DNA of 64,000 nucleotides from Longimicrobiales bacterium (GTDB lineage Bacteria > Gemmatimonadota > Gemmatimonadetes > Longimicrobiales > Gaopeijiaceae). Made by a program: the position numbers and the translations under genes. Below are positions 18,097-63,781 of this stretch, in pieces. The notes under the pieces are model-generated. The model saw nothing but the letters and a program-made list of their open reading frames with translations. It did no database searches and was not told where the DNA came from. Numbering within the stretch: the stretch's first letter is position 1; each line of letters begins with the position of its first letter. The stretch covers positions 1,920,001 to 1,984,000 of the forward strand of contig CBDBCF010000001.1 of the NCBI GenBank assembly GCA_965202985.1, given 5' to 3'.

Positions 18097-18404
18097 TTCC
18101 GAGTACCTTTTCTTCGGAAAGGATCCGCTTTCGGGATGAGGGGCTAGCTACCAAGTGTTGCGCCGACGCCAACCGCGAGTCAAGCACGGCGTAGCTGTGG
18201 GCGATGCTCGAGGCTGACAGTGGATCGAGCCGTGTCGGTCGGCCGACCGTCCCGCACCACCTTCTGTCGACCACAAGACGGCGGAAACCAACCCCAGGGA
18301 ACTCCAAAGAGTTCTCTACCTTGATCGCCCCTGCGGTTTCCTCTTATCCTTCGTCATCGCGGGATTCCTCCTGCGCGCCGACCCAGAGCCAGAAAAGCAG
18401 ACGC

Positions 18405-19823
18405 ATGACCACAACCGCAACCGCAACGATATTCTCCCGGGCGTGGAAGGTGACGAGGCTCGTCGTCGTCCTCCTCCTTTGGGGGATCCAATCCCCGGCC
18501 GGGGCCGCCCAGCGCCCTGATAGTTTGTTGATTCTGGCGATCACATTAGGTGGACGCAGAGGGCGACGGCGGTTGGCCCGGACGCTTGCTGTGTTTGGAG
18601 CGCTAGTGGTAACGCTAAATGGAGCTGGCGGTCAGCAGTTCCAGGAGCGAACTCTTGCATCGTCACCAATATTTGATACCGATACTAGTGAAGACGTCGG
18701 GATCGTTGCACTTGCGGCGGCCTCTCACGCTCTTCTTACCGGAGACACACGATTTGTGGCGACCGGCCCGGAGTATGCTAATGCCATGCTATTTGTTGTG
18801 GATGTCGCCAACGGCTCGGTGACGACAATCACTGCGGAGGAATTGGGAATTTCCAATTTGGGGGGCGTTACACTGGTGCGAGTGGACGTTGATGACCGAA
18901 TTGTCGCTTGGCACAGTGAGTCATCACAGATCATTACCATGTCGTCGACGGGAACGGCGGTCAGGCGCATCCCACTTCGGTTGCCGTACGGTTTTATGGC
19001 GGATTCCTGGGAGTTGGCTACGTATGGTAGTGCAAGTCAACTTCCCGTGTTGCGACAGCTAGCGTATGGACCAGGACGTGGCGGTGAAGATGGAGGATCG
19101 TACCGTCAGATGGTTACCTTTGGCGTTATGCATCGTGATGGAAACTTGGAGCGCATCGCACAAGTGGAAGGAGTCGAACGTGTGTACCTTTCCATTCGTC
19201 AGGACTCAGCTTGGGGCAACGTCGAGGCAGATGTGATTTTTGGCGAGACAGTCTTTGTTGCTCCGCTTGGCGACGACAAGTTGATTGTTGCAGATACGGA
19301 TGCGGATTCGATTCGGGTACTGGACGCGCGGGGTAGCTATGAACCTCTGATGCCGACACCGTTACGGTCAGTTGTTGTGACGGAGGAGGACATTGGGATT
19401 GAGAGAAGCCGACGGAAGCGGCGTAGTGCGATGGATGCGGAGATGGAAGGCTTGATTGACATGGTATCCGGTCGGCATCGAGAGCAATTGATAGCATCTG
19501 ATCGTGCCCGTCGCGTGGCGGTAGACTTTGCGCCAGCGAGTCGGACACCTTCGGCAATTGCAGGGTTGATGGTAGATGGACAGTCCAGGCTGTGGCTGAA
19601 GCGGTTTGTCCCACCGACTGACTCGATTACATATTGGGATGTATGGAACACGACGCGGGCCTTCATCGAGTTTAGCGTGAGGGTGCCCCGCGAGTGGGAT
19701 GTCTTGGATGCCCGCGGTGACCGCGTGTTGTTGCGCGGGAGTAAAGCGAACGGAAGAAGGAGTCGCGACCTTGGTCGGCTGATGCTTCTGGATATGAGAC
19801 AAACGGTGGTTCAGGGCCGTTGA
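18405..19823 (+). CDS. exported hypothetical protein, possibly 6-bladed beta-propeller-like (lower GC; start uncertain)
   Basis: Long ORF with signal-like segments and motifs such as LIVADTDADSIRVLDARG and GLMVDGQSRLWL...WDV. Confidence 0.55.
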   Translation: MTTTATATIFSRAWKVTRLVVVLLLWGIQSPAGAAQRPDSLLILAITLGGRRGRRRLARTLAVFGALVVTLNGAGGQQFQERTLASSPIFDTDTSEDVGIVALAAASHALLTGDTRFVATGPEYANAMLFVVDVANGSVTTITAEELGISNLGGVTLVRVDVDDRIVAWHSESSQIITMSSTGTAVRRIPLRLPYGFMADSWELATYGSASQLPVLRQLAYGPGRGGEDGGSYRQMVTFGVMHRDGNLERIAQVEGVERVYLSIRQDSAWGNVEADVIFGETVFVAPLGDDKLIVADTDADSIRVLDARGSYEPLMPTPLRSVVVTEEDIGIERSRRKRRSAMDAEMEGLIDMVSGRHREQLIASDRARRVAVDFAPASRTPSAIAGLMVDGQSRLWLKRFVPPTDSITYWDVWNTTRAFIEFSVRVPREWDVLDARGDRVLLRGSKANGRRSRDLGRLMLLDMRQTVVQGR

Positions 19824-26572: not shown

Positions 26573-26747
26573 AGTGATGCTATGCATCAACGACCATGAG
26601 TTTCACCACTAGGCTGACCAAGCGTCATTCTTCTTCGGCAAGATCCACGCGGCTGCCAAGAGCTGCTCCGGGGTCAACCCGGATCGGTCGATGTGGCTGG
26701 CGAATTCGTGTGTCGCCGAGCTGGCGGAATCCGTTTCGACCGACTAG

Positions 26748-28275
26748 CAGCCCGTGGATAAACGGGTTTGGCGCGTGCGCGACGGAACTTGGCGGGACAC
26801 GGGCGTTTACCGGGCTCTCGACGGCGCGAACGCGCGGAATTCGCGGAATTGGGCTTGAAGCGGCCCGAGGAGGCGCTCGAGCGGCCCGAGAGCGGCCGAT
26901 GGGCGGCAAAATCGGCGCAAAACGGAGGAGGAGGCGCCCGTCGCGCAGGAATCGAGCACAGCTTGCGCTGCGGCGGGGCGGCCCTGCAGGCCCCGAGGCG
27001 TGCCGACGCCGAAGCGCCTTCGCATGAGCAGTCCGAGGTTGAAGGCGGCGACGTGAATCAGCATCCGCTTGCGGATGTCCTCGTGGCCGCGAACGTGCAC
27101 GCGGCGAAGCCCGCCCGTCTCCAGCAGGTGCGCGAACGAGCGCTCGAGCTTCTCGCCCCGCATCCTCAGCAGCGCCTTGCCGCGCTCGCCCCGAATCCGC
27201 CGCCGGTTCGCGTAGACCGGCTTCTGGGCTTCCTTGTTCTGCTTCCAGCTCCGCCGACCGCGCTCGGGCTCGCTCACGTAGCCGCGCAGCCCCCGGTCCT
27301 CCAACTCCGTCATCGTCCTGTTCGAGTGATAGCCTTTGTCGCACACCACTTCCGCCGCCCCAGCACCCAGCTCCGCCAGCCGCCGCTCCGCCTCGTCCAG
27401 CGTCTCCGGCAGCGACGCCGCGTCGCCCCCGTCCGTCGTCTGCACCGTCACGCCCACCACGGCCCCCGACTCCAGGTCCACCGCCTGCTCCAGCTTGTGA
27501 CCAAGCCGCGTGCGCCCGTCCTTCATCTTCGTGATCCGCGCCTCCGGGTCCCCCGGATGCACCCACTCCGCGTTCGACCCCTTCTTCGGACGCTTCCGGT
27601 CCAGCTTCGCCAACTCCGCGCGCGTCGGCGTCTCGATCCCCGACGACCGCGCCAGCTCCCGCAGCCACGCCTCGTAGCCCGTGCCCGCGTCCCGACGCAC
27701 GATCGAGCGCATCGCCGCGTTCGCCTCCAAAGTCGTCGAGTCCACGCCCAGCGTCCCGCCCCCCAGCAGCCCCGAGTCGTCCACCAGCCGCAGCACGCGC
27801 GCGAACACCGCCACGTGCGCCTCCACGCTCAGCCGCTTGCGCGTCTTCGACAGGCTCGAATGGTCCGGCGGGTTCCTCGTCAGCTCGTACCCCAGGAACG
27901 CCCGCACCGAAAACGAGTCCCTGCACCGCCAGGCGATGCCCCGCTCCGACGAGATGCCCTCCAAGTACCCCACCATCAGCGCCCGGAAGTACACACTCGG
28001 AGGAACTCCCGGCCGGCCCACGTTGCCCGCGTAGAACTCGGCGCACACCTCCTCCGCGAACTCGTCGAACCCGTCCTCCCGCAACAGCTTGTCCAGCGCG
28101 CGGTAGACGGGTGCTCGGTCACGCTGATCTCGCTGGTCGCCACGAACAGCGCCTCCTGGCGCACGCTCGGACGCTTGCCCAACGCCATCGCCGTCCTCCT
28201 TCCAGGGAATCGTCGCTTCCCTCCAAGCTAACCCCTATCCCCAACGCCGACCGGAAGGACTTTATCCACGGGCTG
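26748..28275 (-). mobile_element. IS5/IS1182-like insertion sequence with 15-bp terminal IRs and CTAG target duplication
   Basis: CTAG|cagcccgtggataaa at 26744-26762 and tttatccacgggctg|CTAG at 28261-28279 flank a DDE transposase. Confidence 0.9.
26807..28188 (-). pseudogene. DDE transposase, frameshifted near 28107
   Basis: The N-terminus (ATG 28188, AGGAGG RBS) is in a different frame from the body (PDHSSLS, VDSTTLEANA, DKGY, ERSFA). The second copy has the extra base (HPFYRALDKLL). Confidence 0.8.
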
Positions 28276-28387
28276 CTAGGCCACCTTCGGTGCCTGTTTC
28301 CAAGTATTCGCCGACGGCCTCGGACACGAAGGCCGTGACTTCCCGTCGGCGTGGTTGTTCAACGACCCGAAGTTCAATACTGCCCCA

Positions 28388-30184
28388 CTAAGGCCTTGCT
28401 GTCACCTTTTTGATTTCCGAAGACACTCGTTTCGCGCGCGCCTTGATGTACTGGCTGTATCGCTTTTCGATCGTGCCTTTCGTCCACATCGCATCGTAAG
28501 GCACCAAGTGACTCTCAACCCGATCCCGCAGGTCGTCCTCTGAAACTCCTCCCTCCAAGATGTCATCAAAGTAATCGCGAGGATCAGACTTCGCGAGCCT
28601 TCGATTCGTGAATCGACTGAGGAGCACTCCGTTCAGTCCATGCTGGATGCGTGTACGGTCGATTCCTTCCCTCTTGAGAATGTCCCGAGGAAAGACATGA
28701 TGCCTGTCCAGGCGCCTCTTATCTTCCAGTTCTCGAATACGCTCGGCATCAAACTTCTGTCCTGTGGCCCAGTCAAGTGGTCCACGACGGGAGACCAACG
28801 CTGCCACTGCCCGTCCAAGTCTCCCACTCCCAATCCATGGGAGTGATTCCACAAGCTGATCTGTTCCGGGTACGGGATGGACGTCTTCATTGAACACCTC
28901 GGGCAACAAACCTACAACTCTGCCGTGTTCGCTGATCTCCGCAATGCATCGGCAAAGATCGGTGTAGTCACCGAGCAGGCGATCGTTGGCTTGTGCTTCA
29001 TGACGATTGGTGACGAGTGACCGCCAGTAGTATGCAGACATCAGCTTGTCTTGCTGATTAATCTTCAGTGGATCACGAAGCCCATTCGCCTTGCCTTGGA
29101 TGGCCGCAATGACGTGCAGAGGAGGCCAGCTCGGCAACGTCCGCATCGTCGGCGAACCCTGGCGTGCTGCAATGCGCAAAGTAGCTTCCAGATCCTTCAG
29201 CAGGTCATCTAATCCGGCGAGCCCATCATTTACTATCATAGACTCAAAGGCGTCTTCGTAGTTAGATTCCTTTGGTGCCCTCCCCGATTTGAGACAGGCT
29301 ACCCTCAGCATCCATTCGCCTACATCCGGTATCCATTCTTCCGAATCGGGTTTGAAGTAGTGTTCCATTAGATCACTGCTCCGAACCGAGTCGTGGACTT
29401 TTTCCCTCAAGTCTTCACCATACTTGCCCCTCGCCAAAGCCACAACGATGTCGAATCGCTTGATCTGCACGGACGAACTATTTGTTTCAACAAATATATC
29501 TACCGCGACGCTAGTCTTTGTGGATTTGTACAGGTTGCAGTACCATAAATGCCGATTGAACAACAATTCTTCTCTGAGATGGGTCCGAATGGCCTTGTCA
29601 AGCAAGGCGACATCCCGACTTCCACCGTTCCCCTGAGCAGTGTGGCACCAGTGCCATATCTCACCGAGCTCGGTGCCCGTTTCTTTATCCAATTGTGCCT
29701 TTCTATCAAACAGTATGTCTATGGGCACACATTTGTTATCATAAGCAAATCGTGGATCCTCAAGTCTCCTGCCGAATCCCGTTCCCGGCGAGTAGAAGGT
29801 GACACCAGCTACGTTCAGGTCCAATGTTGCTAAGTCGGGCACCTGAAGGTAGAACCGATGTCTCGGGTTAGCCTCCCCGCCAAGTGCCTTCCAAAGCGAA
29901 GTCAGGCGTTGTTGCCCGTCAAGCACCAATTCCTTTGCTCGACCCGTTTGGGTTGACATGCCGTTGAATCGCCTTGATCCAAACTGCGGTTCACGTGCGG
30001 ATTCTAGAATCAAGAACGTACCCGTCGGGCGATTCTTCATAACTGCCATGAGGTACTGTGCAGTTCGGGCCGGATTCCATACCCAGCTTCGCTGAAAATC
30101 GGGCAGCGCCAGTGTACCGTTGTCGGCCATGTCCAACCATTGGTGAATGTGTCTGCTCTTGTACTCAGCCATCTGTGCTGTCAC
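28388..30184 (-). CDS. DUF262 (ParB-like) + HNH/DUF1524-like protein, GmrSD/SspE-type nuclease
   Basis: LPDFQRSWVW, LVLDGQQRLTSL, IFVETNS, and C-terminal DRHHVFPR...NGVLL...TNRRL. GAGGAGG RBS before the GTG at 30184. Confidence 0.85.
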   Translation of the reverse strand: MTAQMAEYKSRHIHQWLDMADNGTLALPDFQRSWVWNPARTAQYLMAVMKNRPTGTFLILESAREPQFGSRRFNGMSTQTGRAKELVLDGQQRLTSLWKALGGEANPRHRFYLQVPDLATLDLNVAGVTFYSPGTGFGRRLEDPRFAYDNKCVPIDILFDRKAQLDKETGTELGEIWHWCHTAQGNGGSRDVALLDKAIRTHLREELLFNRHLWYCNLYKSTKTSVAVDIFVETNSSSVQIKRFDIVVALARGKYGEDLREKVHDSVRSSDLMEHYFKPDSEEWIPDVGEWMLRVACLKSGRAPKESNYEDAFESMIVNDGLAGLDDLLKDLEATLRIAARQGSPTMRTLPSWPPLHVIAAIQGKANGLRDPLKINQQDKLMSAYYWRSLVTNRHEAQANDRLLGDYTDLCRCIAEISEHGRVVGLLPEVFNEDVHPVPGTDQLVESLPWIGSGRLGRAVAALVSRRGPLDWATGQKFDAERIRELEDKRRLDRHHVFPRDILKREGIDRTRIQHGLNGVLLSRFTNRRLAKSDPRDYFDDILEGGVSEDDLRDRVESHLVPYDAMWTKGTIEKRYSQYIKARAKRVSSEIKKVTARP

Positions 30185-30426
30185 TGATGCATCCTCCTCG
30201 TACGAGTGAGCTTCTTTTTGCGAGGACGAAGCCGTAAGGCCTCTAGCAGATCGTCGAGAGCCGACGACCTGTCGCTCGCAGCGTCCACAGGAAGATAGCG
30301 GTTTCTCTGCTTCGATCCAAGTGACTCGGCGGCCACCGCTACACTCCGACGGAGGCGGGTGAAACGGCCGTCGGGCAATGTCGGAAGCGCCGGAGCCGGC
30401 CGACGCGGTGCTCGTCGCTTGGCCAT
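30181..30426 (-). CDS. 81-aa ORF coupled to the DUF262 gene; possibly a remnant of a paralogue of 33665..34537
   Basis: GGGGAGG RBS. Its stop overlaps the DUF262 GTG. 'LPDGRFTRLRRS' resembles 'LDNAAFSRLRRD'. Confidence 0.45.
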   Translation of the reverse strand: MAKRRAPRRPAPALPTLPDGRFTRLRRSVAVAAESLGSKQRNRYLPVDAASDRSSALDDLLEALRLRPRKKKLTRTRRMHQ

Positions 30427-30472
30427 GGCCTGTTCGACCTCCCCTCAGCGGATCTGCTTGCGCCACGGCTAG

Positions 30473-31210
30473 GAGCCCGTGGCGCACAGCGCACGGCGGG
30501 GGAAGCGGAGCCGGGCGTGGCGTGTTGGCGGGAGACGGTGGGGGCGCGCGCGCATGTCCGGGCGTGCGGGGCGGCTAGGTGCCGAACCGATCGGTGGGCC
30601 GTTCGGGGTGCCCGAGGGTGTGGCGAGGGCGCCGAGAGGCCGGATCCGGGTGAGAAAAGGCCGAGTTCGGGCAAGAAAAGGCGCGCAGGGCGTGCGGAGC
30701 GCTTCGTCGGGCGCACGGCCCCCCTGTTGCGGGCGGTTGGAGAACAGCGTCCGGGTTCGTCGGCGGTCGCATCGCCGGCGCTTCGCCCAAGTTCTCCTTG
30801 GCCCGTTCGAGCACTGGCTCCAAGCAGTCGGCCGGCTGGTTCGTCACCCCGTGCACCACGACGACCTGCGCGGCCTCGTCCACCCCCGGCCGCGCGTTGT
30901 ACGCCTGCACGAACCCGTGCGTTCCCAACGCATGACGTGACTCTTCGGATCCGTGAAGTTGCGCTGCGCCCCGTCCCTTCGCCACCGCCGGGTTGCCGTG
31001 GCCCGCCGCCGTTTGCTCCATGCCAGCCGCCTGCGGTCCGCAGCTTGCGCGCCCGCGTCAACCGCGTCGCCTCTTCCAGCCGCGCCTTCGCCTCCCGAAT
31101 CCGCGCCAGCCGGTCCTCGCGCCGACTCAACTTCTCCGGCAACCCGTCGGTGCCGCTCCCCTCCCCTCGCTCCGACTCGGCGCGTCCGCTGCCTCCGCCT
31201 CCGCCAGCAT
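30473..31210 (-). mobile_element. degenerate IS1182-family element (transposase remnant)
   Basis: Fragments in several frames: PEKLSRREDRLARIREAKARLE, RNFTDPKSHVM, GFVQAYNA..VDEAAQVVV. End CTAG|gagcccgtgg at 30469. Confidence 0.7.
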
Positions 31211-32961
31211 CCGCGTCACCCCGAGCCGGTGCGGTACGGACCGCGGCGACGGGTGCCGTCGAAGCTGGACCCGTACAAGGCGATCATCGACGAGCGGCTG
31301 GCGGCGTATCCGAAGCTTTCGGCGACCCGCCTATACTGGGAGGTGTGGGAGTCGGGCTATGCGGGGAGCTGCAGCCAGGTCAAGCGGTACGTGCGGGGGT
31401 TCGTCCTCGTGCCGAGCCGGAGCCGGAGCCGGAGCAGCGGTTCGAGACGCCGCCGAGCTATCAGGGCCAGGTCGACTTTCGCGGACCTCGTGCTGCCATG
31501 GGGCAGGCGGTACGCGCTGGCAGTGGTGCTGGGCTACTTGCGGATGCTGTGGCTCCGGTACTACGAGCGGCAGACGATGGAGACGGTGGTCCGGGGTCTG
31601 GAGGGTGCGTTCGCGTTTTTCGGAGGCGTGCCCGCCAAGCTGCTTTTCGACCAGATGCGGGCGGTCCGCTGCTGGAGAATCGGAGTTCCTGCGGTTCAGC
31701 GCGCACTGGGGCCTCCGCATCCGGGCGTGCAGGGCAGGTCGGGCGAAAACGAAGGGGAAGGTCGAGCGTCCGCGTTCACGGCACGTTGAAGCAGCGTCCC
31801 GTGATCCGCTTCGAGGACGAGCGGGGCTGGCTCCTGCCGCTGGCGCAACGGCCCTATCGCTCGGTCGTCCCGGTCGCGGCTCGGCAGGCGGCACCGGAGT
31901 CGGGCGGTCCCGTCGTGGCGGTGGAGCGGCGGTCTCTGGCCGAGTACGCCAAGACCGCGGAGGCCGCGTCGCGAAAGGCGGTGTCGCGCAGAGACCGGAT
32001 CGAGGAGCTGCTGGCGGACTTGAAGATGCCGGGCGCGCTCGAAGCGCTTGCCGACGTGCTGGCCCGCGTCGACGGCGGCGCAGCGACGGCGGCCGAAGCG
32101 ATCGAGGAGCTGCTGGCGGCGCAGATCGCGTTGCGCAACAGCCGTCGGCTGGCGACGGCGATGCGGTCGAGCCGTTTGCCGTCGGTCAAGACGCTCGAGG
32201 AGTACGACTTCGCGTTCCAGCCGTCGGTGAAGCGGGAGCAGATCGTGTCGCTGCACGAACTGGGGTTCGTGGCACAAAAGGAGAATGTCGTGTTCATGGG
32301 CCCGCCGGGCGTGGGCAAGACGCACCTGGCGATCAGCTTGGCCGTCGCGGCGGCGCAGGGCGGTCGGCGTATCTACTACGGCACGCGCTCCGATCTCGTG
32401 GAGTCGCTCGAGGAGGCTCGGGCGGCCGGCTGCCTCAAGCAGCGGCTCAAGACGCTGACGCACCCGTCGCTGCTGGGGTCGACGAGATCGGCTACTTGCC
32501 GGTGAGCCGGAGCGCGGCGACGCTGTTCTTCCAGCTGATCGCCCGGCGCTACGAGCACGCCTCGACGGTGGTCACCTCCAACAAGGGGTTCGAGGAGTGG
32601 GGACGGATCCTGGGCGACGAAGTGATGGCGGCTGCACTGCTGGACCGGTTGCTGCACCGATGCCACATCGTCAACATCCGAGGCAACAGCTGGCGGACCC
32701 GGCACCATGCCGCCGAGCTGGCCAAGGCGCTGGAAGGTCGGCCGTCGGACGACGGCCCCGGAGACGAAGGGAGCGGATCGTGACCAGGAATTGGGGCCAG
32801 GGCCTCGTCGCCACCAAGAACGCCGTCGCGACCTGGACGATCACGCCGGCACTCCACGTCGCGGGAACCCGCCCCCGGTCGCTCCGCTCCCTACGTTCGG
32901 GTCCCCATGAGTGTGCAATTTTCGACGGCCAAGAAAGTGCAATCTTCGACGGTTGCTGACA
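31210..32961 (+). mobile_element. degenerate IS21-family element (istA truncated/frameshifted, istB frameshifted)
   Basis: IstA-like SKLDPYKAIIDERL, RFETPP..QGQVDF, KGKVER. IstB-like KTLEEYDF, GPPGVGKT, DEIGY, TSNKGF, LLDRLLH. Terminal repeats gtgcaattttcgacgg/gtgcaatcttcgacgg and an end at ...TGACA 32961. Confidence 0.85.
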
Positions 32962-33664
32962 ACCCACTCCGCGTTCGACCCTTCTTCGGACGCTTCCCGT
33001 CCAGCTTCGCCAACTCCGCGCGCGTCGGCGTCTCGATCCCCGACGACCGCGCCAACTCTCGCAACCACGCCTCGTAGCCCGTGCCCCCGTCCCGACGCAC
33101 GATCGAACGCATCGCCGCGTCCGCCTCCAGCGTCGTTGAGTCCACGCCCAACGTCCCGACCCCCAGCAGCCCTAAATCGTCCAGCAGCCTCAGCACGCGG
33201 CCGAACGCCGCGACGTGTGCCTCCACGCTCGACCGCTTGCGCGTCTTCGACAGGCTCGAATGGTCCGGCGCGGGTTCTTCGTCAGCTCGTACCCCAGGAA
33301 CGCGCGCAGCGAAAACGAGTCCCTGCAACGCCAGGCGATGCCTCGCTCCGACGAGATGCCCTCCAAGTACCCCACCATCAGCCCCGGGAAGTACACCCCG
33401 GAGGATTCCTCGGCCGGCCCCCGTTGCCCGCGCAGAACTCCGCGCACACCTCCTCCTCGAACTTGTCGAAGCTGTCCTCCCGCAACAGCTTGTCCAGCGC
33501 CCGATAGAACGGATGCTCGGTCACGCCGAGCTCGCTCGTCGCCACGACCAGCGCCTGCTGGTGCACGCTCGGACGCTCGCCTACCGTCCTTCGAGGGGAT
33601 CGTTCCGTCACTCCAATCTAATCCCAACCAATCGCCGGCTCGTAAGGACTTTATCCACGGGCTG
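32962..33664 (-). mobile_element. truncated second copy of the 26748..28275 IS
   Basis: Diverged copy of ~27560-28275 with the same terminal tttatccacgggctg|CTAG. Cut off by the IS21 end; several frameshifts. Confidence 0.88.
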
Positions 33665-34537
33665 CTAGTCGATAGCACGTATGATCAGATCCATAATATC
33701 TTCCAACTCCTTACGGTTGAGCACACTCAGCTCCCGAACCGCCTGAACCGCACTCAAATTTCTGCACGCACGAACAAGCCACTGAGCATTCGCTAGTCGT
33801 TGATTGCCACTCAACTGGATGGTCTCGGCGAGTCGTGTAACAAAGGCCTCTCTAATCTCATGCGATCCCATCACCGAATTTCGTGATACAATCATAACGA
33901 CCAACTTTTCCCAGTATGTCTTGCTCAACCGGACTAAGTCTCGAACCTTCTTCGTCAGATCGGCGTCGTTTCGACCTACCTGAACCGCAAGGCGCTCTCT
34001 CCACCAAGTTCGGGCAAATGGGCAATCCACGTAAACCGTTCGATTGCCTCTCGCTTCCGGCAGACCACTAAGCCGCCGGAGAGCCGTCCGAACGCAATCA
34101 TCCATCATCTTCGCACGCTTCTTCCCGGCCCTCCGAAGCGCCCGGTCAATTCGTTCGGCACCACCGGCGTACGAGCCATTGGCCGCCAGGTAGGCCGCCT
34201 TGATCCGGCCCTGCCGAATGTGATGACAGGTGATGTTGCCCCAGAAGGACGATCGGCATGCGATCCGCGGAGTGAGCATCTCCCATACGTCGTAGAGCAT
34301 CAGCTGGGTGTCCACGGGAGGCTCCCGGTATTCCGTTTCCGTAAGGGGATGTGGACAGAGGGAAACGGTCCCCTTGCCGGTCACCGGTATACGCCCGATA
34401 AACTCCAGAAATTGGTGGTCTTCCTGCAAAGCATACAAGAATTCTTCTTGAAGCTCGCCACCCTTCTCTCGCAGAAGATCCCTTCGGAGCCTCGAGAACG
34501 CTGCATTGTCAAGCTCCTTGTTTCCCACTTTAGCCAT
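33665..34537 (-). CDS. hypothetical protein (LTP.IA...FW / ARTWW motifs, reminiscent of DUF6339)
   Basis: Clean 290-aa lower-GC ORF in the operon. The family resemblance is recalled and unverified. Confidence 0.7.
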   Translation of the reverse strand: MAKVGNKELDNAAFSRLRRDLLREKGGELQEEFLYALQEDHQFLEFIGRIPVTGKGTVSLCPHPLTETEYREPPVDTQLMLYDVWEMLTPRIACRSSFWGNITCHHIRQGRIKAAYLAANGSYAGGAERIDRALRRAGKKRAKMMDDCVRTALRRLSGLPEARGNRTVYVDCPFARTWWRERLAVQVGRNDADLTKKVRDLVRLSKTYWEKLVVMIVSRNSVMGSHEIREAFVTRLAETIQLSGNQRLANAQWLVRACRNLSAVQAVRELSVLNRKELEDIMDLIIRAID

Positions 34538-34540
34538 TAA

Positions 34541-35386
34541 CTACATTTCTCCGTTGTCGCTACTGTCAAGCTGCTGATGTGGGTACATGGCCGTCGCTAC
34601 CTCTTCAGGCCGGAACTCATCGTCCATCCATCTAGGAAGGTCTTCATCGTCGAGGTATTCTGCCAGTGCAACAAGATGTCGATCCGTCTGCCAGCGCTCT
34701 TCTTCGCGAAAATCACGCTGAAGTAACGCAAAGCAGGCCGTCACTATGTGCGTCATGATATGATTCCGAATATGGCTTCCCGTACTGTATCGTAAAAAAC
34801 GATGCAAATCGGTGCTTAAGGTCACTACAAACCGAAATGGTTGGCTTTCTGCGTCCACCATAAACGTACCATCTGACAAGTCTCCATCCTGTTTGAGATA
34901 CAACAGATGCAATACCGTAGGCTTCATCCGCACGACAGGTCCGATCGCTATACGGGAGCCTTTGTCGATTTTCACCGTTCGACCCGTCCACGAAGGGTGA
35001 ACATCATCCCGATCGGAACACAACGTCAGCGTTCGTGACTGAAATGCTATCACCATTGGAGTAAGCAACGGCGATTCTCCCATGTCGTCAGCACTCCAGG
35101 ACACCTCCTGTGTAGCCTCCGCCGAGAAGTGTACTCTCCGGTAGGACGACACAGGCGATGACACTGCGCAACAATATCTAGCGGCTCCTTCCCTAACTAA
35201 TCGTCGAACCAATTCAGCGTTCTGCATATCATGCTGCAACAAGAACGACGACCGTTCCTTTCCTGGTCTGAAGTCGATAGCATACTGGCCACTCGGATAC
35301 GACATGTTCCCTGCTTCTAGAACGGGATACCGTCTGGATTTCGTTGCGTTCGCCTCGGAATTCGCGAGCGCAACGATCTGAGTCAT
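34541..35386 (-). CDS. hypothetical protein (N-terminal YPVL motif)
   Basis: 281-aa ORF, ATGA-coupled to the GHKL gene, with a GGAGGAGG RBS. Confidence 0.75.
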   Translation of the reverse strand: MTQIVALANSEANATKSRRYPVLEAGNMSYPSGQYAIDFRPGKERSSFLLQHDMQNAELVRRLVREGAARYCCAVSSPVSSYRRVHFSAEATQEVSWSADDMGESPLLTPMVIAFQSRTLTLCSDRDDVHPSWTGRTVKIDKGSRIAIGPVVRMKPTVLHLLYLKQDGDLSDGTFMVDAESQPFRFVVTLSTDLHRFLRYSTGSHIRNHIMTHIVTACFALLQRDFREEERWQTDRHLVALAEYLDDEDLPRWMDDEFRPEEVATAMYPHQQLDSSDNGEM

Positions 35387-37329
35387 CGACCTCCTCCTTC
35401 TTTGATTCCCGGCGCTACCTCAACCACGAGACTGGCGCTAGGCGCCTGGACGGCGTCAAAATATCCTGGTAGCGAGTAGCTTGCTTCCACCGTGACCTTT
35501 TGGCCTTTGGCAAGGGAGCCCAGTTGGACGCCAACGACTTTGCCGTTCTCCATCAGCAGCACGCAGCCGTCCGCGGCCGTACCGTCTACAAGAACATCGC
35601 ACAATTCTACGTCGGCCTTGGCGTCGCGAACTATACGGTCGCATGTTGAATCGATATTCTCGTCCACAAACAGGCGCAACTCCGCGGATCTACACTGGCG
35701 ATGGCATGTGACCTCAATGCGTCGTCGGTCAACTGACACGGGCACCGTGACGGCGCTGAATAGGGACTCGACGCTCCGCCTCCTGCTTCGACCCGATGGA
35801 TCTACCGTGCTATTACTAGGCTCGCGTCTTCTGGATCGCCCTTGCTGTGACCGAACAGGGTTCCTCTCAGGGCTCCTTTGGCCAACAGCCACTGGTGTGG
35901 CCCAAGAGTCACTGCCACCCCCAAAGTCAAGCACGAGAATGTCGTCCGGACTAAAGGCAGTGTCGGAGACTTCATTGGTATTGTCCAGCAGCCAGTCACG
36001 TAACTCTCCAAAGGCTTTTTTGATGGCCACTCTATCCTCTTTGCCTAAATTTTTGACATTGAGCTTGTCGTGAAGGGGGCCTTCGGCCTCTCTGACTAGG
36101 CGATACAGTTCTGTCGTATCGTCATCGAGCAACAAAAGCGCGTGAAATGGTCGACGATCTCGAAATTTGTAATAAAATCCTGGAATGCCGCCCTTCGGCG
36201 TCTTGTCGTCGGTGATCCACATTCCGTTTCTGAGAAGATCGACCCTAGGACTCCCGGATTGCTTCTGGAGCAGCCGTATTCGCAACGAACCGTGCGACGT
36301 CTCGACCGGAAAATAATCTTTCCCTCGTGTGAGAGCGGTGTAGCTGTCATAGGCTTTCGAACCGCTCAGAAACGCCTTCGATCGTGTTTTCTGTCGGTTG
36401 TCGGTTAGCACGCCACCAATATTGCTGTGGTCAAGGGTCCGAATCCCCGAATCGAGGTGGGTGGCATCGCCTGGGTCCTCGACATGTACAACAAGCTGTC
36501 GTTCGGCGATGGCTTGGAAGAAATTGCACGCCGCAGCCTCCGACACCATGTCCCAGAGAGATCGTGACTCTCGAAAGTTGTTGAAGGAAGGAATGATGAC
36601 GACGCTCCCATAATCCGCATCAGCCAGCAAATCGCTTAGTTGATCACGGATGACCTTAGGTATGTTTGAGCCACGAGCGCAATCGAACAGCTTGCCATTA
36701 CGACCGTTGCGAAACCCCTTGATCAGAAACCCGTCGCCGGAACAGACGTGTGTGCTTGCCATATCGTGTGAGGCATGTGAAGCAATGACCGCGTGACCGG
36801 AACCGATTGTCTCGCCTGTATTGAGGAGGCCTCCATAGAGCAGATAACGTAAGTCCGACGCAGGGATAGCAACAGAATGTCCGTTTCCGTACGTGCCGGA
36901 GGCACCGCCACCCTTGGCGCTTACCCCGTCGCTGAGGAGGGCGTTCATGCGTCGGTCGTCAAGCCCTATACCGTTGTCAAAGATCGACAGTACGCTCTGC
37001 GTCTCCTGTCGCAGCGCATGATCAATCGTCCTTATCACTGAAGAGGCTGTTGGAGCCAGACTGCCACCTGCCATTTCCTCCTGCATCTTAACGGCAGCGT
37101 CAAACGCCCCCTCGTAAGCTCTAATGCCCGGAATGTCGTCCGTGGCCACCGTGGCGAGCCGAAAGCGGACTATAGCTTTGTCCCGGCCGGCCTCGCAGGC
37201 TGCGTCGAACGAATTCTGGACAAGCTCCCGTACAACCGCTGCCGGGCGAAGGTCGTCAAACGCCGCAATCCCGGCTGGGTTGAATCCCTTAATGTCGCCG
37301 GCGGGGCCAAACCGCAGACGAACTGCCAC
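35383..37329 (-). CDS. GHKL (HSP90/MORC/MutL-like) ATPase domain protein
   Basis: VVRELVQNSFDA (N box), IFDNGIG (G1), SAKGGGASGTYGNG (G2), followed by a long uncharacterised C-terminus. Confidence 0.8.
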   Translation of the reverse strand: MAVRLRFGPAGDIKGFNPAGIAAFDDLRPAAVVRELVQNSFDAACEAGRDKAIVRFRLATVATDDIPGIRAYEGAFDAAVKMQEEMAGGSLAPTASSVIRTIDHALRQETQSVLSIFDNGIGLDDRRMNALLSDGVSAKGGGASGTYGNGHSVAIPASDLRYLLYGGLLNTGETIGSGHAVIASHASHDMASTHVCSGDGFLIKGFRNGRNGKLFDCARGSNIPKVIRDQLSDLLADADYGSVVIIPSFNNFRESRSLWDMVSEAAACNFFQAIAERQLVVHVEDPGDATHLDSGIRTLDHSNIGGVLTDNRQKTRSKAFLSGSKAYDSYTALTRGKDYFPVETSHGSLRIRLLQKQSGSPRVDLLRNGMWITDDKTPKGGIPGFYYKFRDRRPFHALLLLDDDTTELYRLVREAEGPLHDKLNVKNLGKEDRVAIKKAFGELRDWLLDNTNEVSDTAFSPDDILVLDFGGGSDSWATPVAVGQRSPERNPVRSQQGRSRRREPSNSTVDPSGRSRRRSVESLFSAVTVPVSVDRRRIEVTCHRQCRSAELRLFVDENIDSTCDRIVRDAKADVELCDVLVDGTAADGCVLLMENGKVVGVQLGSLAKGQKVTVEASYSLPGYFDAVQAPSASLVVEVAPGIKEGGGR

Positions 37330-37332
37330 CGG

Positions 37333-38502
37333 CTATGCCCCCACCAAGGTGCTAGCCATCGCAACGGCATCTGTCAACACGGCCGATGCTGTGGCAACAT
37401 CGTCTTCGGTAGTGAAGCGCCCCAAGCTGATTCGTATTCCCGTGGACGCCCGTTCGTAGTCGCAGCCAAGCGCCATGAGTACCCTAGAGGGCTTTGAGGC
37501 TACGGACGTGCAGGCGGCACCAGTCGAAATGGCGATCCTGTGGGAAACAGTGGAGAGTAGCTCCGTACCCCGAAGGCCGGGGAACCCGACATTGAGGTTG
37601 CCGGCTATGCGATGATGTCTGTGGCCGAACAGTCTCATGTCTGGACGACTGTCGCAAAGCTGGTCCGCCAACCAGCGAGAGTAACGAGACATGCGAGCAA
37701 CGTCTGACTGCCACTCGATTGCTGCCAGTTCGCTGGCCTTGCCTAGTCCCACGGCCAGCGGAACAGGAACGGTGCCAGGTCGAAGGCCTCGTTCCTGACC
37801 GCCACCGGCCAGAATGGGAGCGATCGGAGTTCCAGAACGCACGTACAGAGCCCCGATGCCCTTGGGACCGTACATCTTGTGTCCTGAAATACTGAGTAAA
37901 TCCACATTCCAGGCGTCGACGTCAATCTCCATCCGGCCCGCGGCCTGCGTTGCGTCACTGTGGAACAGTACGCCGGCTCGCCGGCACATTTTTCCAATCT
38001 GTTCGACTTCTTGAAGCACGCCAATCTCATTGTTGGCCGCCATCACCGACACGATCAGCACTTGGTCGTCCAAAGCCCGCTCGAGGTCGTCCATGTCGAG
38101 GATGCCGTCACGGTCCACTGGTAGAACGACCGAATCGATGTTGCGTTGATCGAGATGAGCGACCGTCTCCAGCACGGCGGAATGCTCCGTGGCAACAGTG
38201 ACGACCTTACGACGCTGAGGGTACCGATTTGCGTTGACGACTCCCTGGAGGGCGATGTTGCAGGACTCGGTTGCCCCAGCCGTCAACACAATCTCTTCGT
38301 CGTCTGCATTGACAAATCCCGCGACGAGTGCGCGCGCCTTCTCAACTTCGCCGAAAGCATCCCATCCGTAGCCGTGTCCGTTTGAATGCGGATTACCGTA
38401 ACGAGTGCGAAAGAAAGGTAGCATGGCCTCGAGGACACGCGGATCGAGCGGCGTAGTCGCCTGGTTGTCGAGGTAGATCGGATGGCTCGGCACGCTACTC
38501 AC
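37333..38502 (-). CDS. cysteine desulfurase (IscS/NifS/DndA/SspA-like)
   Basis: IYLDNQATTP, HSDATQAAG, SGHKMYGPKG (PLP Lys) and STGAACTS (catalytic Cys). GTG at 38502 overlaps the upstream stop. Confidence 0.93.
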   Translation of the reverse strand: MSSVPSHPIYLDNQATTPLDPRVLEAMLPFFRTRYGNPHSNGHGYGWDAFGEVEKARALVAGFVNADDEEIVLTAGATESCNIALQGVVNANRYPQRRKVVTVATEHSAVLETVAHLDQRNIDSVVLPVDRDGILDMDDLERALDDQVLIVSVMAANNEIGVLQEVEQIGKMCRRAGVLFHSDATQAAGRMEIDVDAWNVDLLSISGHKMYGPKGIGALYVRSGTPIAPILAGGGQERGLRPGTVPVPLAVGLGKASELAAIEWQSDVARMSRYSRWLADQLCDSRPDMRLFGHRHHRIAGNLNVGFPGLRGTELLSTVSHRIAISTGAACTSVASKPSRVLMALGCDYERASTGIRISLGRFTTEDDVATASAVLTDAVAMASTLVGA

Positions 38503-39875
38503 TCCGTGCAGTCGCAGGGCAGGAGGCTCTCCGAGTACTTGGGAAGAACCTTTCCGTTGGACTCCTCCAGCTTCTCGTACGTCATCCCTTTCGCGCCGAA
38601 GAAGCCGATCGTCGTACTCTCGGGGTTCCCGGTGATCTTCCGGCCCTCCTCTTTCAGATCTCGGCCATACCTTTTCTCCATGCGTACCCACCAACGGATA
38701 TCGGACGGCGTGTCTCGTAGCGAACCGAAATCGGCTACGTCTTCTTCCGCAGCTGAATGCATGCGTTCATGCACATCTTGGAGATTGGACATCCCCTTCA
38801 GGAAGCAGTACACGCAGTTGGAAAGGCTTCCTTCGCCTGGTAACGACAGGTTCCATTGCTGCTGGTCCCAAAACGCGTTTACGTCGTCGCGAGCTATTGC
38901 CATGTCTGCCAGGGGCATGTAAACATGCTCGCCTTCGTAGCCGGAGGAACCCGGACCAGAATTGCGGGCTGAGACGCGGTTGACACGCTTTTCTTCATCC
39001 GCCCGAAGGCCGACGAACGCGACATATTCGACACCGCCGCCTCCGAACGAAACGCGATTTCCGTAGGCCTTGCCGTCTAGCAAGGGGTTGGCGAAAGGGA
39101 CCCACGCCGGACAGTAGTCTCTGTACCGCTGCGTAGGACGGACGTGCGGACGACCGCGGGAATAGGCACGCTTCTTCAGGAATATCTTTCTCGGAACCTC
39201 GCCATTGTTATTCTTGTGCCGCTTGTACAATGTGTCATCGTCCAGACGGGACTCGGTCCCATAGTGTCCAAGACGAGGGATCGCATCCGTACCAGCTAGC
39301 CAATCGCGAAGGAAATGTCGTGTGGCTTCAAGTTTCATGCTTTGAGTGCAGATGCGGCTAAAGACGTTCGGAACATAGCCGGAATAAGATATCAGCTCCT
39401 CAAAGACCTCTCCGCGCCAGTGAAAGCCATTCGGGTTGTCTTCGGAACGGGGCTGGTCATTGACTAGGCGGTAGGCTGGGAGACGAGTCCATTCCCCGTG
39501 TCGAGCGTCTTCGTACGTTTGGTATTCGATCCAGAAGAAAGGTATCCCGTACCGATTCGAAGCGCGCATGCAGTCTTGAACGAATCGATACGTGTCGGTG
39601 TGCTCAGCTGAAGTATTATTGAAGACGATCACGTCACCGCGGCTCGGCTGAAGAATCTTGTTCTCCAACAACACAAACAGCAACATGCCGCTAGAGCGCC
39701 CGCCCGAGAACTTCACGACGTGCGGCAAGTCCAGATGTTTCTTGGCACGGTAGCGGAAGCGGTACTCTTTGGTGGGATCGTGCCGTGGGGGCGGCTTCCG
39801 CAACTTGCCGGAGACGACGAGCCGTGGGACGGCCTGGAGCGTGAGCTGCGAATCGCTGCCGTTCCGCTCTCGCAT
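38499..39875 (-). CDS. PP-loop adenine nucleotide alpha-hydrolase / PAPS-reductase-like, Cys-rich (putative Fe-S) protein
   Basis: VKFSGGRSSG (PP-loop variant), FNNTSAEH, RICTQSMK, VGLRADEEKR, SNCVYCFLK and a C-terminal PCDC. ATG at 39875 with GAGG upstream. Confidence 0.8.
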   Translation of the reverse strand: MRERNGSDSQLTLQAVPRLVVSGKLRKPPPRHDPTKEYRFRYRAKKHLDLPHVVKFSGGRSSGMLLFVLLENKILQPSRGDVIVFNNTSAEHTDTYRFVQDCMRASNRYGIPFFWIEYQTYEDARHGEWTRLPAYRLVNDQPRSEDNPNGFHWRGEVFEELISYSGYVPNVFSRICTQSMKLEATRHFLRDWLAGTDAIPRLGHYGTESRLDDDTLYKRHKNNNGEVPRKIFLKKRAYSRGRPHVRPTQRYRDYCPAWVPFANPLLDGKAYGNRVSFGGGGVEYVAFVGLRADEEKRVNRVSARNSGPGSSGYEGEHVYMPLADMAIARDDVNAFWDQQQWNLSLPGEGSLSNCVYCFLKGMSNLQDVHERMHSAAEEDVADFGSLRDTPSDIRWWVRMEKRYGRDLKEEGRKITGNPESTTIGFFGAKGMTYEKLEESNGKVLPKYSESLLPCDCTE

Positions 39876-40091
39876 TAGTCGGCGACCTCGGGTAGGCGTG
39901 GTGGAGAGAAGAGTTCCGCTGCTGGGTCTTTCATGGCGTGCATGGTCACTCGTAGTACGATGGCACGGCGCTCCGTTCGTGGCAAGTGGCGCGAGTGGTA
40001 CCGGTCCTACCGAAGGCCGACCTTCCAAGCTCCCCTTCCAGCGGCTAGCTTCCGAGGTCCCCGCCATCTTCTCCCCGCCGCCAAGTTGCCC

Positions 40092-41297
40092 GTGCCGCCC
40101 ACCCACCCCGGCGTCCCCCTTCCCCGGTCCGCGCCCTTGGACCCCGCCGAGACGGCCCGCTACGCCCGGCACTTGGTGCTGCCCGAGGTGGGCCGCGACG
40201 GCCAGGAGCGCCTCAAGGCCGCCCGCGTGCTGCTGGTGGGGGCCGGCGGGCTGGGGTCGCCGGCGGGACTGTACTTGGCGGCGGCGGGGGTCGGCACGCT
40301 GGGCGTGGTGGACCCGGACGTGGTGGACGCCACCAACCTGCAGCGCCAGATCCTGCACGGCACCTCGGACCTGGGCGCGCCCAAGGTCGATTCCGCCAGG
40401 CGAAGGCTGGCCGAGGCGAACCCGCACGTGGCCGTCGAGACGCTGGCCGCCAAGCTGACGGCGGACAACGCCCTGGGCGTCGTGGCGGAGTACGACGTGG
40501 TGGTGGACGGGAGCGACAACTTCCCCACGCGGTACTTGGTCAACGACGCCTGCGTGCTTTCCGGCAAGCCCAACGTGTACGGGTCGGTCTACCGGTGGGA
40601 GGGGCAGCTGTCGGTCTTCGGCCTGGAAGGGGGACCTTGCTACCGCTGTCTGTTCAGGGAGCCGCCCCCGCCGGGCGCGGTCCCCAACTGCGCGGAGGCC
40701 GGCGTCTTCGGCGCGCTGCCGGGGGTGATCGGCGCGGCACAGGCCATGGAGACGATCAAGCTGGTCCTGGGCGCCGGCGACGTGCTGGCGGGCCGCCTCC
40801 AGCTCTTCGACGCGCTGGCGTATCGGTGGCGGGAGGTGGAGGTGCGCCGGGACCCCGCGTGCCCCGCGTGCGGCGATCGTCCCACCGTGACGGAGCTCGT
40901 CGACTACGACGCGTTCTGCGGCGCGGCCGGCAACGGAGCTGGCGCGAGCGCGGGCGCAGCCGACGACGAAGACCAAGTCGGCCGCGTCCACCCCGGCGAG
41001 CTTGCGGGCGTCATGTCCGGCGAACCCCGGCCCTTCCTCTTGGACGTGAGGGAGCCGTTGGAGTGGAGGGCGATGAACCTGCGGTCGCTGGGCGCGGTGC
41101 TGGTGCCCAAGGGAGAGATCCCCGAACGCCTGCAGGAAATCCCCAAGGACCGCCCGGTGGTGGTCTACTGCCACAGCGGCGTGCGCAGTCTGGACGTGGC
41201 GCGGACCCTGGCCGCCGCAGGCTACGATCACGTGCGGAACCTGGAAGGCGGGATCGCGGCGGTGCTGGAAGAGACGCCCCAGATGGTCGGTTCGTGA
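40092..41297 (+). CDS. moeB: MoeB/ThiF E1-like adenylyltransferase with C-terminal rhodanese (MoeZ-type)
   Basis: RYARHL, GAGGLGS, TNLQRQ, DGSDNF, CYRC, CPAC, and rhodanese YCHSGVRS. Confidence 0.9.
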   Translation: MPPTHPGVPLPRSAPLDPAETARYARHLVLPEVGRDGQERLKAARVLLVGAGGLGSPAGLYLAAAGVGTLGVVDPDVVDATNLQRQILHGTSDLGAPKVDSARRRLAEANPHVAVETLAAKLTADNALGVVAEYDVVVDGSDNFPTRYLVNDACVLSGKPNVYGSVYRWEGQLSVFGLEGGPCYRCLFREPPPPGAVPNCAEAGVFGALPGVIGAAQAMETIKLVLGAGDVLAGRLQLFDALAYRWREVEVRRDPACPACGDRPTVTELVDYDAFCGAAGNGAGASAGAADDEDQVGRVHPGELAGVMSGEPRPFLLDVREPLEWRAMNLRSLGAVLVPKGEIPERLQEIPKDRPVVVYCHSGVRSLDVARTLAAAGYDHVRNLEGGIAAVLEETPQMVGS

Positions 41298-63105: not shown

Positions 63106-63781
63106 GTGATGTCGTCGAGTTGTTTGGATATCCGACTAACGACTCCGCACGCGTGCCGATTGCCTGCATCTCTTGTCGCGGCATGAGCCCGGAAACGAAA
63201 TCCATGTTGTATCGGAAATGACCGTACCTGGAGGCAGTGTCGATTATGTTCTTGTCTCTGCTCGAAATGGACAGGTAGCAGATTTCGTCGGCATCGAGCT
63301 CCAGACCTTGGACACTACCGGCACGGTGTGGCCTGCGCGACAACACTTTCTTGGTAGTGTGGGCGTTGGCGAAGTTCGAGAAGACGATGTTTGCCGTCGG
63401 GGCTACGGGATGAATTGGAAGATGACAGCCAAGACGATCTTGATCCAGCTCCATCACAAGCTCCGAACGTTCGAAGCGATTGATCAGACACTCGTGCTTG
63501 TTGTTCAGGATCACTTGTTGCAATACCTCCGCAGGGAATTCAACTTCTCTCACGTCGCTGACGTACGGCAGATCGATTCGATGCATTTTCATGCCTATGC
63601 AATGAATCTCGGAGCCGACGGCAGTTTTGAGCTACAACTGGACATGCGAGCAAGCACGGATTCGGAGGGCATTGCCACATGCCTTGGACTTAGAGCAGAA
63701 CCAGACGTTGGATTGGAGAAGATCGTCCGACAGCTTGAGGATAGACTGTCCGACCAGACGCTGTTTCGTCTGGATTCATGA
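63102..63781 (+). pseudogene. NotI/EagI-like restriction endonuclease, N-terminally deleted/frameshifted
   Basis: GTG 63102 (VSDVVELFG) is out of frame with ...DCLHLLSRHEPGNE..GSVDYVL..IELQTLDTTG..MNWKMT..QLHHK. Confidence 0.65.

Follow-up and report, generated by a model that had tools for sequence, protein, structure and literature searches.

A candidate DNA phosphorothioation cassette built on a GHKL ATPase and a NinC-like PP-loop enzyme, widespread in bacteria

Can sulfur be put on self DNA by a machine whose ATPase belongs to neither of the two families described for this task? According to a 2025 review, phosphorothioate (PT) is installed by a PAPS-reductase that is combined with an ATPase from either of two families and with either of two DNA-recognition proteins (PMC12707154). 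In a Longimicrobiales genome, an earlier note on a stretch of 64,000 nucleotides (the window, the whole of the DNA analysed here) pointed out a string of genes in which a PP-loop enzyme and a cysteine desulfurase are followed by a GHKL ATPase, and proposed a distinct anti-phage system based on sulfur marking. We have followed up this proposal, and the reading that we favour, at a probability of roughly 55%, is that of a PT system whose ATPase is of a third class, a putative four-gene machine that would place sulfur, most likely as a backbone phosphorothioate, on the DNA of its host.

The genes occupy a 13.5-kb stretch (~26573-40130) between recQ and moeB, two genes that are only 165-228 bp apart in 3/3 genomes of the same genus, so that the stretch is an inserted island. 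All seven open reading frames, which we call A to G, lie on the minus strand and are as tightly packed as had been described. The PP-loop enzyme of the PAPS-reductase fold (A, 458 aa, 38499..39875) shares a GTGA overlap with the cysteine desulfurase (B, 389 aa, 37333..38502), which is followed after 3 nt by a GHKL ATPase of the MutL/MORC type (C, 648 aa, 35383..37329); an ATGA overlap leads on to D (281 aa, 34541..35386), and 3 nt further comes E (290 aa, 33665..34537). Here, 3.2 kb of insertion sequence (IS) debris (30469..33668), made of a partial DUF772/DDE IS, an IS21 istB piece and others, cuts off E from G, a protein with DUF262 and HNH nuclease domains (598 aa, 28388..30184) that is joined by a GTGA overlap to the 81-aa ORF F (30181..30426). 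The debris has CTAG at both ends, repeats found genome-wide and an IstB Pfam match; contigs of run X1 cross both of its junctions with zero differing letters, and no IS-free E-G joint is found among the joints listed from those contigs. An intact 1.5-kb IS with a DUF772/DDE transposase (26744..28279, minus strand) marks the left end of the island and has four further near-full copies on contig C1. The lower GC content claimed for the string was also borne out (0.51-0.63 in the cassette genes vs ~0.70 in the flanks), and at third codon positions the values are 0.54-0.68 vs 0.90 and 0.93 for recQ and moeB.

Do these genes belong together? Counted per place, A occurs in 151 distinct places, accompanied by C in 142, D in 137 and E in 134 of them, by the desulfurase B in 100 and by the DUF262-HNH gene G in 49. 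When the GHKL gene was taken as the anchor (76 loci with at least 4 kb per side, out of 86 fetched), D was present in 76, E in 75, A in 74, B in 65 and G in 25, which confirms that the genes co-occur elsewhere. This co-occurrence is far above chance, with counts that are inflated because the loci are related and were picked by similarity, and because defence islands cluster genes. The genes follow one another as A-[B]-C-D-E or as C-D-E-A-[B-G], the loci come from many phyla, and gene order is kept in more than 130 places. The core thus comprises A, C, D and E, with B and G as optional genes; from the five-gene core of the earlier proposal only the desulfurase has to be removed. The 51 places that lack B include the paralogue resident in this genome and in 3/3 congeners. 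The cassette is real and widespread in bacteria, and we found no description of it in the mainly openly readable literature, nor any literature on DUF6339 or PDC-M33, two families that appear below. MANTIS, as far as the accessible part of its source describes it, and the system of PMC3387028 were considered as the same thing and rejected as unrelated systems.

The candidate writer, A, matches Pfam PAPS_reduct with an E value of 0.012, under the cut-off, and its best PADLOC match, a weak one, is SspD (E 1e-9, 36.5 bits), a model that gives 35.1 bits to a true DndC and 49-55 bits to NinC-like proteins. The SGGxxS loop is conserved, with invariant S57, G59 and S62, together with four cysteines present in 71/71 rows (C176, C354, C357 and C454) and a fifth, C456, in 70/71. 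Profile comparison aligned A along its full length with NinC-like phage proteins (hhalign probability 99.8, E 4e-29), spanning the PP-loop, RxC and NCxxC motifs, vs a probability of 8.6 with four DndC proteins and 12 bits against TIGR03183, the DndC model with a cut-off of 290. Judged by sequence, A is outside the DndC clade and resembles the phage NinC-like proteins, for which the accessible part of the literature yielded no established function. No close relative of A is encoded on viral contigs, where a search with an A-methylase fusion found matches mostly to the methylase part, and a PDB sequence search with A returned a tag artefact only. The fusion itself, of A to a cytosine methylase, occurs in one clade and ties A to DNA; a quick version of the tree was used solely for the monophyly of this clade.

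What sets A apart from its NinC-like relatives is a set of system-specific inserts, and it is there that a contact with E is predicted. The modelled E-A complex scored 0.84 (best control, 0.01), with at least 97% of the contacts agreeing between runs and a partner pLDDT of at least 83; the mark used for such scores is reached by 116/157 solved pairs and 2/215 mismatched pairs, and is only roughly applicable since our own alignments were used. The inserts involved are absent or partly aligned in NinC-like proteins, and the contact motifs have decayed in three copies of A on ICEs that lack C, D and E. A is therefore a predicted binding partner of E.

The identity of the C-D-E triad could be narrowed down further than the earlier description of D and E as two unrecognised proteins. 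C is a homologue of PDC-M33A (E 5e-29; 99 bits vs 275-538 for canonical members), and 27 rows share without change the residues E35, N39, D42, D118-N-G-x-G122 and G145/G148-N-G150, the N-box, G1 and G2 motifs of GHKL ATPases; in the PDB it found weak matches only, all of them to MutL or MORC3 (E 0.2-1). D, a probable adaptor that has no homology to C, matches PDC-M33B (E 3e-10), and its model (pLDDT 91.6) has an N-terminal Ig/FN3-like beta-sandwich followed by an alpha/beta and helical C-terminal part, the best structural match being a generic FN3 fold (Z 7.3, rmsd 3.0, 95 residues aligned). E occupies the position of PDC-M33C and belongs to a family in which 61/75 members carry the Pfam domain DUF6339. 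The E protein of the window itself reaches 23.0 bits for this domain (gathering score 23.2), aligns weakly by hhalign with one canonical member and has no direct PADLOC M33C match; it is modelled as all-helical (pLDDT 92.7) and resembles no known fold clearly (best Z 6.4). A search of D and E for RHH or wHTH folds of the DndE/SspB kind gave generic matches only (Z <8), Foldseek found no match for either at E 0.001, and the ESM Atlas held unnamed clusters only for D and nothing for E. Taken on these matches, C-D-E is a divergent version of the PDC-M33 triad, a PADLOC candidate from a set offered for future testing (10.1101/2024.01.29.577857). Where the triad occurs without A, cytosine methylases adjoin it in 7/9 cases, twice directly after E in a mirror of the order C-D-E-A, which suggests a swap of writers.

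B is DndA/SspA/IscS-like: it matches PADLOC DndA and SspA at ~E 1e-137, scores under the DndA and IscS equivalog cut-offs, and has the catalytic Lys and Cys of Dnd/Ssp desulfurases (K209 and C331) in 66/66 rows. Its presence goes together with PT companion genes, which flank 43/100 places with B vs 3/51 without it. Four such families recur beside the cassette: TIGR04096 (578 and 611 bits, cut-off 150), the sulfur-binding-domain (SBD) HNH family NF045808 (252-313 bits, cut-off 180), PbeA-like helicases (E 1e-148) with PbeC-like ABC genes, the latter in a minority of 23/151 places, and DGQHR/DndB-like genes. TIGR04096 occurs in 14/50 carrier genomes; in 8/14 a copy lies no more than 10 kb from the GHKL gene, and in 4 of those 8 a DndC-like gene lies elsewhere and TIGR04096 still sits beside the cassette. 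In the other 6/14 it is at least 44 kb away, in one case beside a canonical dndC. DndC over its cut-off is absent from 29/40 carrier genomes. SBD-HNH genes are a common background, with two copies far from the island in this genome, and an A-less triad (L359) has a weak match (66 bits) next to it. Pbe-like cassettes are able to act independently of PT (PMC10853773), and the 64-kb window contains none of the PT companion genes. As a whole, gene neighbourhoods point to phosphorothioation.

G had been likened to both SspE and GmrSD and proposed as the effector of the system. It is closer to GmrSD and BrxU (GmrSD_N, E 3e-16; HEC-05, the BrxU model, E 2e-16; 7p9k, E 1e-12), with no SspE match in PADLOC, and shows the DGQQR (25/25) and HNH signatures of these nucleases (H496 in 24/25, N518 in 25/25). 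PbeA-like helicases and DUF262 proteins never co-occur among the 151 A places: they represent two partner modules that exclude each other, G being one. As a putative effector, G is linked to the core, yet optional and interchangeable, and, given its resemblance to BrxU/GmrSD and not to SspE, may act independently of the core. F, counted earlier as a component, is an ORFan or spurious: it has no family match in profile searches, none of the fetched loci encodes a homologue, and its 5' end recurs at other places in this genome. We also rejected F as the truncated remains of an E paralogue, as it scores against the E profile no better than shuffles.

From the observed gene content, motifs, co-occurrence and island status, together with the predicted contact, we infer the following chemistry, DNA target and anti-phage activity. 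B, or the housekeeping IscS where B is absent, would take sulfur from cysteine and pass it to the conserved cysteines or an Fe-S site of A, whose PP-loop would adenylate the target phosphate and thereby activate it, so that sulfur can be swapped in, as for DndC, SspD and TdpC. E would dock A onto the GHKL-D-E module, and the GHKL dimer would use ATP to clamp, scan or loop DNA, in the role that DndD/E or SspC/B play elsewhere; the loci do indeed conserve a GHKL module in the position of the ATPase, together with a PP-loop enzyme and a desulfurase of the DndA/SspA kind, in support of the original proposal. Invader DNA would then be hit by a linked, exchangeable nuclease module, either the GmrSD/BrxU-like DUF262-HNH protein or a PbeA/PbeC-like helicase-ABC cassette. 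A broader and tentative extension is that the GHKL-D-DUF6339 triad might be a general ATP-driven chassis loading any paired writer, be it a cytosine methylase or a NinC-like sulfur enzyme, with NinC-like PP-loop proteins as one more family of enzymes that write phosphorothioate into DNA.

Other explanations have to be weighed against this one. We consider it unlikely that C-D-E is an effector or guard monitoring a DNA-modifying enzyme, and no loader at all, with A as the guarded or sensing partner and G as an independent type IV nuclease. Such a role would suit a triad that exists without A and the definition of PDCs as genes embedded in other systems (10.1101/2024.01.29.577857), and 76/151 A places have neither G nor PbeA inside the fetched flanks, so that the core may carry its own effector. 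However, family searches with C, D and E revealed no nuclease or toxin, nor did fold searches with D and E, and a guard would be compatible with A still writing PT. A rather improbable reading is that A makes a sulfur-free mark, a stable adenylate or other adduct, and that B builds nothing but the Fe-S cluster of A, for which the five conserved cysteines suffice. B is dispensable in 51/151 places, and no desulfurase is annotated beside the NinC-like genes in two phage regions inspected; but DndA is likewise often absent, with IscS in its place (PMC12914056), and the PT companions track with B.

The same machine could also thiolate a DNA base, in the manner of a 2-thiocytosine-like product of TtcA-type chemistry, instead of the backbone. 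PP-loop enzyme, cysteines and desulfurase are the toolkit of RNA thiolation too (ThiI, MnmA, TtcA; PMC12914056), A is both fused to cytosine methylases and a substitute for them beside the triad, and G resembles nucleases of modified cytosine. We hold this to be quite improbable: the companions, including SBD-HNH and TIGR04096, are PT-associated, and the fold of A is that of PAPS-reductases (Pfam PAPS_reduct, SspD), with no TtcA or ThiI family match in profile searches. As for a chance juxtaposition of metabolic sulfur genes and island debris, suggested by the host ThiF-rhodanese gene (moeB) that adjoins A, its likelihood is close to nil, since it is refuted by the synteny described above and moeB adjoins recQ in the congeners; as a host gene, moeB was also rejected as a sulfur partner of A.

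If confirmed, the GHKL-based PT system would extend phosphorothioation by another ATPase class, the third, and by a writer clade that is new; PDC-M33 and DUF6339 would gain a function, and what NinC-like proteins do in phages could be tested directly. Confirmation would also suggest that PT is under-counted in marine bacteria associated with hosts, among which the cassette is common. In a recent systematic search, a P-loop NTPase had to adjoin the writer (PMC12914056), and a GHKL-based system would therefore be missed. Should the chassis extension be true, phages and conjugative elements in which a NinC-like gene stands alone or is fused to a methylase would be marking their own DNA with sulfur.

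How does the cassette compare with known systems? Like Dnd and Ssp, it combines a PP-loop sulfur enzyme and an optional desulfurase with an ATPase and small partner proteins (PMC12707154, PMC10853773), and keeps the same company: TIGR04096, SBD-HNH, DGQHR, the Pbe/CxC cassette and DUF262-HNH. It differs in its ATPase, which is GHKL where theirs are ABC or ORC/Cdc6, in its NinC-like and not DndC writer, and in a DUF262 protein that is BrxU-like and not SspE. DndD and DndE, obligate in the core of Dnd systems, have no match in the cassette, and DndD over its cut-off is absent from the 92%-complete genome; neither SspB nor SspC has a PADLOC match among the seven proteins at E 0.1, with SspB models that do pick up true SspB at another locus (L306). 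BREX type 4 (BrxP; PMC12914056, PMC12839542) is similar in that a sulfur writer replaces the methylase in a shared scaffold, with an optional desulfurase; in contrast, PglZ, BrxC, BrxL and DUF4007 are missing from the seven proteins and from the annotated recurrent neighbour clusters. The cassette is conserved and, in support of the earlier note, distinct from Dnd, Ssp and BREX type 4. As to TdpABC, considered here as covered in the accessible part of PMC12914056, the family matches include no model of that name. The prokaryotic MORC/paraMORC restriction-modification operons (PMC2292703) also link a GHKL ATPase to DNA methylases, Vsr and nucleases, with DNA looping proposed; the main text of that paper contains 0 occurrences of a PP-loop partner, and C was placed in no paraMORC family as described there. 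The NinC-like proteins of Chi-like and other phages match A by profile over their full length; they are shorter (~280-300 aa), without the long insert (A ~203-283), which forms part of the predicted E interface, and in the two regions inspected have no triad or desulfurase annotated nearby. The closest relative of the triad is PDC-M33, which has three homologous genes in the same order and a similar island location. Its canonical loci sit by methylase restriction-modification genes and have a ~76-aa upstream gene, not found in this clade, which instead carries A, with or without B.

The minus-strand string of seven ORFs proposed in the earlier note was recovered in the window with every position and junction claimed for it. 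It comprises a PP-loop enzyme of the PAPS-reductase fold (A; 39875-38499, 458 aa), a cysteine desulfurase (B; 38502-37333, 389 aa), a GHKL ATPase (C; 37329-35383, 648 aa), a beta-sandwich protein (D; 35386-34541, 281 aa), a DUF6339 protein (E; 34537-33665, 290 aa) and, beyond 3.2 kb of IS pieces with CTAG at each end, a small ORF (F; 30426-30181, 81 aa) and a DUF262-HNH nuclease (G; 30184-28388, 598 aa), followed by an intact multicopy IS. GC3 is 0.54-0.68 for the cassette genes versus 0.90-0.93 for the neighbours recQ and moeB. The latter two lie only 165-228 bp apart in 3/3 same-genus genomes, so the region is an island inserted between them. Contigs of sequencing run X1, which may be the sample of origin, span both junctions of the IS debris with matching sequence, and run X4, labelled as a sponge metagenome, contains short stretches identical to parts of B and D. 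An ARAGORN tRNA-Asn call inside the debris (30695-30789) is probably false. Elsewhere in the window, a low-GC pair of an N6/N4 methylase and a NotI-like nuclease (62041-63781) is an ordinary type II restriction-modification system, and a low-GC ORF of 539 aa (18204-19823) has no Pfam match.

In the alignment of its relatives, A keeps an invariant PP-loop together with RxC176T, C354xxC357 and a terminal CxC; profile comparison places it far from DndC (prob 8.6) and matches it over its full length (prob 99.8) to phage proteins annotated as NinC or PAPS-reductase, present in 65 phage records. B is an intact cysteine desulfurase, C carries the GHKL motifs and matches PDC-M33A, and G has intact DUF262-HNH motifs, with BrxU as nearest relative. 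D and E had been called unrecognised; D in fact matches PDC-M33B and E belongs to DUF6339 (Pfam assignment in 61/75 members), structure searches with confident models of both returning nothing beyond generic fold matches. F, formerly counted in the string, shows no conservation across related loci.

These genes co-occur in other genomes. Among the matches listed, 76 loci anchored on C (flanks of at least 4 kb, 10 of 86 fetched loci left out for short flanks) contain D in 76, E in 75, A in 74, B in 65 and G in 25; 73 anchored on A (80 fetched, at least 8 kb downstream required) contain C and D in 71 each, E and B in 70 each; and 62 anchored on distant A (usable among 78 examined), which show two gene orders, contain C and D in 57 each, E in 56, B in 28 and G in 22. 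Merging 243 loci into 156 distinct places left 151 with A, of which 142 have C, 137 D and 134 E, in sets that are biased and related because the three larger scans took the best 80 of 93, of 300 and of 351 matches. The desulfurase and the nuclease recur at 100 and 49 of these places. Of the nine places out of 151 that lack C, two are on short contigs, four are L114, L159, L294 and L330, and the other three adjoin topB in ICE-like regions, A being fused to a cytosine methylase at two of these. Many related records carry the names of taxa that we take to be sponge symbionts, and relatives also appear, among the matches listed, in Sulfurovum, Sulfurimonas, Campylobacter, Flavobacteriales and Nitrospina records. 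Duplicated D-E, E or entire C-D-E sets adjoin a single cassette at L024, L050, L054, L162, L307 and L355, which hints at exchangeable specificity subunits.

The source genome holds a second A-C-D-E copy, lacking B, on the minus strand (G000:C1:1751629-1756504), with host-like GC and a methylase-like gene nearby. This B-less form is the sole cassette type found in 3/3 congeners; cassette matches occurred in 5/61 genomes searched, the source genome included.

The C-D-E triad also occurs without A, on plasmids of Lactococcus, Ligilactobacillus, Arthrobacter, Paenarthrobacter, Deinococcus and Priestia and in three genomes of a 400-genome class sample. Among nine complete A-less triads, seven have a cytosine methylase nearby (directly after E in two) and the remaining two have other restriction-modification genes; four more M33A-like genes have no detectable partners, three of them with a methylase near. 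At places with A, a cytosine methylase was found in 2/151, both fusions, and in 0/10 A-bearing loci of the 400-genome sample, which cannot be counted as independent of the sets above. The triad therefore accompanies either A or a cytosine methylase as DNA writer. Fusions of a cytosine methylase to an A-type PP-loop domain (L257:8861-11332, L258:5593-8136; P0161, P0162, P0166) lie beside topB, in ICE-like regions where the triad is absent, and are possibly mobile-element DNA-protection enzymes. Directly upstream of canonical PDC-M33A lies a conserved gene of about 76 aa and no Pfam family (L091:8681-8908, L374:7812-8000, L375:7744-7974, L376:7641-7871), probably a fourth, so far unlisted PDC-M33 gene.

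E is predicted to bind A. The modelled complex of E with A(28-458) scored 0.84 (best control 0.01), against a mark that 116/157 solved and 2/215 mismatched pairs reach and that applies only roughly to this pair; contact agreement between runs was at least 97% and partner pLDDT at least 83. The segments of A at the predicted interface (residues 123-129, 203-210 and 268-274) are conserved in the majority of copies linked to the triad; the three ICE copies that lack the triad have them changed, and in NinC-like proteins they are missing or dissimilar. The PDB yielded no similar complex, whether queried with the sequence of A or with the fold of E.

A DNA-modification-linked defence of some kind is highly probable. 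Our main reading, to which we give a probability of roughly 0.55, is a phosphorothioation (PT) machine: sulfur would be supplied by B or IscS, A would activate and then sulfurate the backbone phosphate, a GHKL-D module would clamp or scan DNA with E as the tether holding A to it, and an exchangeable nuclease module would restrict. The chemistry of A is drawn by analogy with DndC, SspD and TdpC (PMC12914056, PMC12707154), and the role of the GHKL protein follows the MORC proposal (PMC2292703). That the triad is instead a guard or effector seems rather unlikely.

As to the mark itself, recurrent neighbours belong to families named for a PT link: by place, TIGR04096 at 20, a PbeA-like helicase at 26 (often with a PbeC-like ABC gene and a gene of about 170 aa), DGQHR/DndB-like at 10 and SBD-HNH (NF045808) at 9. 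At least one stands at 43/100 places with B versus 3/51 without, and PbeA-like genes at 0/49 places with G versus 26/102 without; places being kin rather than independent, Fisher values are not relied on. Of the 54 carriers with a single chromosome, the first 50 in id order were searched; TIGR04096 occurs in 14 of these 50, less than 10 kb from C in eight, beside a canonical dndC in one, 44-96 kb away in three and megabases away in two; DndC exceeds the cut-off in 11/40 carriers, picked mostly for having companions. Counted against PT are that SBD-HNH is a common background gene, that Pbe/CxC cassettes can also function by themselves or together with methylases (PMC10853773) and that none of the four families occurs within the window. 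A sulfur-free mark made by A is unlikely, as is a thio-base. Two NF045808 PT-binding nucleases exceed the cut-off elsewhere in the source genome (G000:C1:2633455-2634339 and 926604-927380), three tandem SBD-HNH-like genes lie immediately downstream of a C-D-E-A-B-G cassette (L292:14077-16866), and a protein of about 650 aa with sigma70 region-4 and RNAP alpha-CTD-like parts (L037:13737-15689 and relatives) is encoded ahead of the PbeA-like helicase at some 23 places.

No published description of the cassette was found in the literature searched, whose supplementary material could hold one. Its triad belongs with PDC-M33, a PADLOC candidate from a set put forward for future testing (10.1101/2024.01.29.577857). 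We regard the cassette as a real, undescribed variant of what, by analogy, would be sulfur-modification defence: it appears to work like Dnd, Ssp and BREX-4, yet differs from all three in writer clade, ATPase class and partners.
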